Positions 1-257 of a DNA stretch of 257 nucleotides are shown here, one piece after another. Each line of letters begins with the position of its first letter. The stretch's first letter is position 1. The stretch lies in assembly GCF_003334255.1 (NCBI RefSeq), contig NZ_QOWU01000275.1, one strand, 5' to 3'. The DNA comes from Escherichia coli (GTDB taxonomy: Bacteria; Pseudomonadota; Gammaproteobacteria; Enterobacterales; Enterobacteriaceae). A model generated the notes under the pieces. It was not told where the DNA came from. It saw nothing but the letters and a program-made list of their open reading frames with translations, and did not search any database. The position numbers and the translations under genes were made by a program.

Positions 1-257
1 GTGCGTTTTTCCGGGTCATAGTTTGACGGCACCTGGATGATGCGACCGCGGATATGGTAGTTCACCGTCATCTGCTGACCACCAAACTGCTCCGCATCCA
101 CCTGCATCCCCACAATGGCCGTGTTCGGGTAGCACTGTTTCACATCGATGATTTCGGTGTATGACGACCACAGCGTTCTGTTCTGCAGCTGGTCCGTGGT
201 GCTGTCCGCCGTCTCCCTGACCATCCGGATGTTAAAGGGGCGGGGAGGCAGATTATC
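1..257 (-). CDS. J: Internal fragment (partial at both ends) of a lambdoid phage tail tip / host specificity protein J (central tail fibre, lambda gpJ family). Complete codons span + coordinates 3-257 read on the minus strand; bases 1-2 belong to the next codon.
   Basis: Seen in sequence: the minus-strand frame anchored at position 257 is open for all 85 codons, while all three plus-strand frames contain stops (e.g. tag at 19-21, tga at 24-26 and 39-41). Translation is DNLPPRPFNIRMVRETADSTTDQLQNRTLWSSYTEIIDVKQCYPNTAIVGMQVDAEQFGGQQMTVNYHIRGRIIQVPSNYDPEKR. Recognition from memory, not a database search: the blocks NLPPRPFNIRM (+ coords 222-254), LWSSYTEIIDVKQCYPNTA (117-173) and YHIRGRIIQVPSNY (18-59) closely match what I recall of phage lambda J roughly 180-270 residues from its N-terminus. 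Codon usage and GC content fit an enterobacterial lambdoid tail module. Confidence 0.85.

Follow-up and report, generated by a model that had tools for sequence, protein, structure and literature searches.

The question raised by this locus is whether a 257-nucleotide stretch of Escherichia coli DNA (the 'window', meaning the whole of the sequence that was analyzed) encodes anything beyond a segment of the lambdoid tail gene J, and whether the genes that flank it in related prophages harbor something new. The original prediction held that nothing within positions 1 to 257 is left unexplained by J coding, and that any novelty would instead be found in the flanks, principally in the J C-terminus and in the cargo region downstream of it. 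The analysis described here indicates, with a probability of approximately 0.97, that the window represents an unremarkable internal piece of gene J from a lambda-like E. coli prophage, read from the minus strand and displaying no detectable second function; no data that contradict this reading were found in the analysis. Direct observation established which gene this is and how it is framed, as well as the confinement of coding constraint to that frame and the absence of other signals.

Minus-strand frame 1 is open across all 257 nucleotides, while each of the other five frames is interrupted by stops. In a PHROG profile search, the 85-residue translation matched PHROG 31, 'central tail fiber J' (E 1.3e-51), and PHROG 1727 (E 1.5e-47); overall, the PHROG J families match the window at E values of 1e-51 to 5e-54, and related tail families match it as well. 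The translation is identical to residues 170-254 of the annotated gpJ protein (1157 aa) of E. coli 55989, the window as a whole corresponding to J nucleotides 508-764, and the coding sequence, as annotated, runs past the window at both ends, with its stop codon located 2,710 nucleotides below window position 1. The gpJ annotation and the open minus-strand frame thus agree with the earlier placement of J on the minus strand, with its downstream direction on the low-coordinate side of the window. The full-length 55989 protein contains the six Pfam domains of the canonical gpJ architecture, all in order and at E values of 1e-31 to 1e-40 (Table 1), and matches the chains of the lambda J cryo-EM structure (8iyk) at E = 0. 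Within that architecture the window sits in the N-terminal quarter, where it covers the end of the FNIII-A_GpJ domain and the stretch that precedes Phage-tail_3, at a distance of more than 2.3 kb from the receptor-binding domain (residues 1027-1157). The surrounding tail operon displays the order M-L-K-I-J-lom-stf-tfa in five loci (L001, from 55989; L002; L004; L005; and L009, from E2348/69) that were compared with lambda itself (L003).

The structural role of the encoded segment can be proposed by comparison with its lambda homologue, whose structure has been solved. Protein J would form a trimeric tail-tip hub together with the central fiber, and residues 170-254 would be part of the N-terminal hub that builds the tail tip, rather than of the C-terminal receptor-binding domain. 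From the homology of this protein to lambda J as visualized by cryo-EM (PMC11101478), it would likewise be expected to assemble as a trimer at the tail tip and to trigger the ejection of DNA once a receptor is bound.

Table 1. Coordinates of the window within gene J and of the features discussed in the text (L001, E. coli 55989; L007, NCTC9112; L008, phage record CP025907.1).
Feature	Sequence	Coordinates	Strand	Basis
Internal J coding segment, codons 170-254 of 1157	window	3..257	minus	open frame, PHROG 31, gpJ exact match
J codon 255, positions 1 and 2	window	1..2	minus	position in annotated CDS
gpJ CDS, E. coli 55989	L001	17291-20764	minus	annotation
Window within E. coli 55989 gpJ	L001	20001-20257		exact DNA match
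FNIII-A_GpJ	55989 J	residues 86-207		Pfam
Phage-tail_3	55989 J	residues 331-491		Pfam
Ig_J	55989 J	residues 609-712		Pfam
Ig_J_second	55989 J	residues 714-816		Pfam
Phage_Tail_Tip	55989 J	residues 870-998		Pfam
Ig_GpJ_C	55989 J	residues 1027-1157		Pfam
Class I SAM methyltransferase segment	L001	11669-13302	against tail genes	PHROG 2132, function unknown
Rfam IS009 (RF02111) match	L001	12761-12959	minus	225.7 bits (gathering-level)
Promoter-like site, TTCACA-16-TATAAT	L001	20970-20997	opposite tail genes	11/12 matches
Terminator in I-J gap	L001	21077-21093		
PasB	L001	21019-21101	plus (antisense to tail genes)	blastn, 83/83 nt
PasB	L004	10917-10999		blastn, 83/83 nt
PasB	L008	13917-13999		blastn, 83/83 nt
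'Beta family protein' / 'sce7726 family protein' pair	L001	37022-38651	divergent	
OmpC-family porin gene	L007	13334-14497	minus	

Megablast searches located the exact 257 nucleotides in 26 E. coli chromosomes, always within a gene annotated as gpJ, while matches of at least 80% identity were found in 4,410 of 5,426 complete E. coli genomes, at a median of two and up to 14 places per genome. In a phage collection, 251 records match the window, and a single one (CP025907.1) is identical to it. Eight of the exact-match contexts were read, consisting of seven chromosomal loci and that phage record. In three of the chromosomes (55989, 600055 and 120899) the prophage interrupts ompW, with lambda-type head genes in 55989 and 120899 and HK97-type head genes in 600055; in all three, J is followed by lom, a long side tail fiber (1042-1137 aa), tfa, a class I SAM methyltransferase on the opposite strand, a tfa 3' remnant, a DUF4376 remnant and a remnant of ompW, and a 45-aa ORF after tfa is annotated in two of the three. 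In NCCP15648 the prophage adjoins yecD/aspS, and J-lom-stf-tfa is accompanied by a DinI-like gene. At the same yecD/aspS site in 2015C-3121 (L006 2791-10764), a 1176-aa J is followed, with no lom, by a short fiber, DUF4376, a protein with a YadA C-terminal domain (Eib-like) and a DinI-like gene, and in NCTC9112 the genes after J encode lom, a short fiber, DUF4376, ISEc12 and a YadA-C protein. In the phage record, which is unannotated and corresponds to phage 204576, the J frame breaks at codon 322, and the C-terminal 260 residues are still encoded further on at 99.2% identity; the break is either a frameshift or an assembly or sequencing error.

The identical window was therefore found with at least four flank configurations, at no fewer than two integration sites. 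Since the same 257 nucleotides occur in 27 records with differing flanks, the window alone cannot tell which flanks apply to it, and since the same bases are found in at least four configurations, a J fragment of this length is not sufficient to reveal which prophage, receptor-binding domain or cargo goes with it.

Two observations concern genes found elsewhere in these prophages. The NCTC9112 prophage carries a complete OmpC-family porin gene between its tail genes M and L; 22 E. coli genomes share the insert, junctions included, at 99% identity or more, and no deposited phage contains it. The insert has a megablast match in only 214 of the 5,426 genomes, and it therefore does not represent a close copy of chromosomal ompC. 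The J domain of the same prophage is nearest to an OmpC-binding one, which makes the insert notable, and the situation recalls that of phage PA-2 and its Lc porin. In 55989, a divergent pair of genes annotated as 'beta family protein' and 'sce7726 family protein' lies between the small terminase and lysis genes and was matched in PADLOC to PD-Lambda-2_C (E 6e-32), and to beta and cll (E 3.8e-31); by these matches, the pair is a candidate for defense cargo at the other classic moron site.

The alternative that survives best is that the window derives not from an intact gene but from a decayed, non-functional remnant of J within a cryptic prophage, which appears very unlikely. The abundance of J-like sequences (up to 14 per E. 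coli genome, many of them in defective prophages) and the interrupted J frame of CP025907.1, whose window is identical, would each be compatible with such an origin. Among the chromosomal exact-match contexts, however, the J reading frame is intact in every case (1157 codons in six of the seven, and 1176 codons in the seventh), all seven genes sit in complete tail modules, and the window itself contains neither a stop codon nor a frameshift.

Whether the window encodes anything in addition to J was examined using 88 ungapped homologues, drawn from fetched loci and from IMG/VR and representing 37 distinct DNA sequences. Every one of the 37 has an open J frame, and 26 of the 31 variable sites within the window fall at third positions of its codons (as compared with four at first positions and one at a second position). 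It is highly improbable, given these patterns, that the window hides an overlapping element such as an antisense small ORF, an sRNA or a regulatory site. Two short ORFs do arise mechanically within it (one of 51 aa in another minus-strand frame and one of 36 aa on the plus strand), and an antisense sRNA, PasB, is found 762 nucleotides away in the same operon, so that elements of this type do exist within the cluster. On the other hand, none of the 37 distinct homologues has any of the five non-J frames open over the full window (a count that applies to whole frames rather than to the two short ORFs individually), and variation is concentrated at J third positions, with no sub-segment showing more invariance across all positions than would be expected. 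Scans of the window for direct and inverted repeats, and for promoter-like and terminator-like sites, were empty, and a search of it against the described RNA families in Rfam, at E values up to 1, produced no match. The single open frame, the third-position bias and the empty scans all bear out the statement that J coding accounts for positions 1 to 257. A further alternative, that the window marks a mosaic recombination boundary in J and might be used as a marker of module exchange, is scarcely credible: J genes that share the window do differ by up to 656 nucleotides elsewhere (concentrated after J nucleotide 1800), and head modules and integration sites vary among the same contexts, but every exact-match comparison of these otherwise mosaic genes shows a 100% identical block of at least 470 nucleotides, which runs from J nucleotide 343 to nucleotide 812 or beyond (457-797 against E2348/69). 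This block takes in the whole window and extends past it at either end, so that no recombination junction falls within the window and the boundaries of the block are located outside.

With the window thus read as internal J coding sequence, the remaining questions concern its flanks. Of the seven chromosomal contexts with this window, six have a receptor-binding domain of one type, at 96.9-100% mutual identity, whereas in 2015C-3121 the identical window is joined to a J protein whose last ~150 residues show no relationship to the usual domain (18.5% identity). The expectation that the J C-terminus varies is thereby confirmed, and, because two unrelated C-termini pair with the same window, the window does not predict receptor specificity. 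A LamB-type domain would be recognized by its close resemblance to the lambda sequence from about residue 1000 to 1132; over its last 131 residues, the common type is 41.7% identical to the LamB-binding domain of lambda, and LamB specificity therefore cannot be assumed. The same domain is 56.1% identical to that of the A8 chimera, which also provides the best match among solved structures to the C-terminal 289 residues (9wca/9wcb; E 4.5e-120), ahead of lambda J. The A8 gpJ chimera was built from the C-terminus of a natural E. coli prophage J, and was demonstrated experimentally to be dependent upon OmpC (Brodel et al. 2024, PMC11338833). An OmpC-type receptor for the common J type would be a reasonable, if weak, guess. 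The deposited sequences nearest to the last 260 residues of J are those of phage 204576 (99.2%), PPompW_EH1992 (96.9%) and PhiR46_1 (95.0%), and a published receptor was found in the literature for none of these three, nor for the E2348/69 prophage PP6.

In the eight exact-match contexts that were read, the core order downstream of J (J-lom-stf-tfa, encoding lom, the side fiber and a fiber chaperone) follows that of lambda; lom is absent from 2015C-3121. Among the post-J genes of L001, lom belongs to PHROG 108, the fiber to PHROG 295 and others, and tfa to PHROG 105, and an NCBIfam scan recovered the Ail/Lom relationship for lom and nothing further. Variable non-structural genes lie between the tail-fiber genes and the attachment site, as is characteristic of a post-J accessory locus, and outside of the window. 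These include the methyltransferase (L001, L002 and L004), DinI-like genes (L005 and L006) and YadA-C/Eib-like genes (L006 and L007), as well as, in relatives, nleA (PP6 of E2348/69; L009) and EspO/NleG/EspM (PPompW_EH1992; L091). The description of the post-J region as a recurrent site of cargo insertion is well supported by these differences among window-sharing contexts and their relatives, which extend to type III effectors, and all of the post-J cargo that was read belongs to classes that have already been described.

The methyltransferase displays only generic class I methyltransferase Pfam domains, together with weak matches to solved structures of small-molecule O-methyltransferases (for example, UbiG and juvenile hormone acid methyltransferase). 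Its gene is carried by 16 deposited lambdoid phages at an identity of more than 99%. On one side of the gene lies the 3' end of tfa, and on the other a 58-codon near-duplicate of this end, an arrangement that suggests insertion by recombination between copies of tfa. The methyltransferase segment has a GC content of about 0.42-0.48, as against about 0.6 in J, a drop that is usual for accessory genes. In a PADLOC scan of the six L001 post-J proteins, five produced no match, and the methyltransferase matched only mad2, at a level that is not significant (E 0.009, 12.9 bits). A search of this region for atypical GC content and for defense functions, as had been recommended, thus revealed the former and no significant PADLOC match for the latter. 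Also present in L001 is a match to the Rfam family IS009, which falls wholly inside the tfa coding sequence and was not counted as an RNA gene; the family itself probably corresponds to coding DNA of prophage tail fiber assembly genes.

Taken together, these features do not sustain the prediction that the flanks harbor novelty: the core gene order is that of lambda, the cargo classes are known, no PADLOC model was significantly matched by the post-J genes, the methyltransferase is nearly invariant (>99%) across 16 phages, and the last 260 residues of J are 95-97% identical to those of deposited phages. What had been named as grounds for abandoning that prediction (a standard lambda-like arrangement, combined with a C-terminus identical to that of a characterized phage) is largely what was observed, except that no phage of known receptor was found to have an identical C-terminus. 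It is unlikely that the J domain recognizes a receptor new to lambdoid J proteins, or that the methyltransferase is an uncharacterized lysogenic-conversion or counter-defense gene, and both would in any event lie outside the window.

The accessory (non-J) element nearest to the window is found upstream of J, and not on the downstream side where interest had been expected. The gap between genes I and J is 343 nucleotides long in L001, versus 60 in lambda, and contains, on the strand opposite the tail genes, a promoter-like site followed ~80 nucleotides later by a terminator. Investigators working with E2348/69 have described an Hfq-dependent prophage sRNA of 83 nucleotides, PasB, that was validated by Northern analysis (Pearl Mizrahi et al. 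2021, PMC8550237); its probe and coordinates (Table S6 of that study) fall between gene I and gpJ of PP6. Identical copies are present in L001, L004 and L008, copies of 97.6-98.8% identity in L002, L005 and L007, and a diverged partial copy in L006, as determined by blastn. In the first three of these loci, the I-J unit corresponds to PasB on the basis of its sequence and its antisense position between I and J, beginning 762 nucleotides beyond the high-coordinate end of the window. Assignment of the unit to AgvB or AsxR was rejected, as those elements lie at the PR' moron site. An Rfam search of the gap, at E values up to 1, returned only sub-threshold chance matches, and PasB has no Rfam family; its distribution has already been described (Zhu, Shabalina and Storz 2026, bioRxiv 10.64898/2026.05.13.724894).

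The sequence around PasB is itself variable. Of the IMG/VR loci, 77 extend far enough upstream to be scored; 29 of these contain the full PasB element, 33 only a piece of it (25-43 nucleotides), and 15 none. The distances between PasB and J, as measured across IMG/VR loci L010-L089 and in L001, L004, L006 and L009, cluster at 153, 204, 255 and 312 nucleotides because the intervening segment consists of alternative, unrelated inserts, each of which carries, on the strand of the tail genes and immediately ahead of the J start codon, a terminator-like hairpin. Tandem units were considered as an explanation for these stepwise distances and were discarded, as Tandem Repeats Finder detected none and alignment shows the inserts to be unrelated. 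The I-J gap is therefore a polymorphic accessory slot, in addition to the post-J region.

The window, as an ordinary and already known stretch of coding sequence from one of the commonest prophage genes of E. coli, matters little in itself, and the interest of its neighborhood lies outside of it and is of kinds that have been described. Its relationship to known systems is correspondingly direct. The gene is the same as that encoding lambda gpJ (8iyk, 8xcg, 8xcj), in the same position of the tail operon and with the same order of Pfam domains; residue identity is about 80% over alignment columns 151-250, which hold the window segment, and 75% over residues 1-860. The two proteins differ in length (1132 aa in lambda versus 1157 aa for the J that contains the window) and, more substantially, in their last 131 residues, which are only 42% identical. 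The OmpC-specific A8 chimera is the closest solved structure to the J C-terminus, yet its identity over the receptor-binding domain proper is 56%. The J protein of PP6 from E2348/69 (EPEC), a prophage whose cargo is nleA, is 96.9% identical over the last 131 residues and 98.3% over its whole length, and three exact-match contexts contain, between I and J and outside of the window, a 100% identical 83-nucleotide copy of the same strain's PasB. Over the last 260 residues, the J proteins of PPompW_EH1992 (with EspO/NleG/EspM as its cargo) and of PhiR46_1 (a phage that carries ParAB and a telR site) are 96.9% and 95.0% identical, respectively. The latter phage (L090, PV340565.1) is an N15-like linear plasmid-prophage, with telR and ParA/ParB, that possesses a lambda-type tail module, and the likeness of its J protein to that of the ompW prophages would represent an exchange of tail modules between integrating and plasmid prophages.
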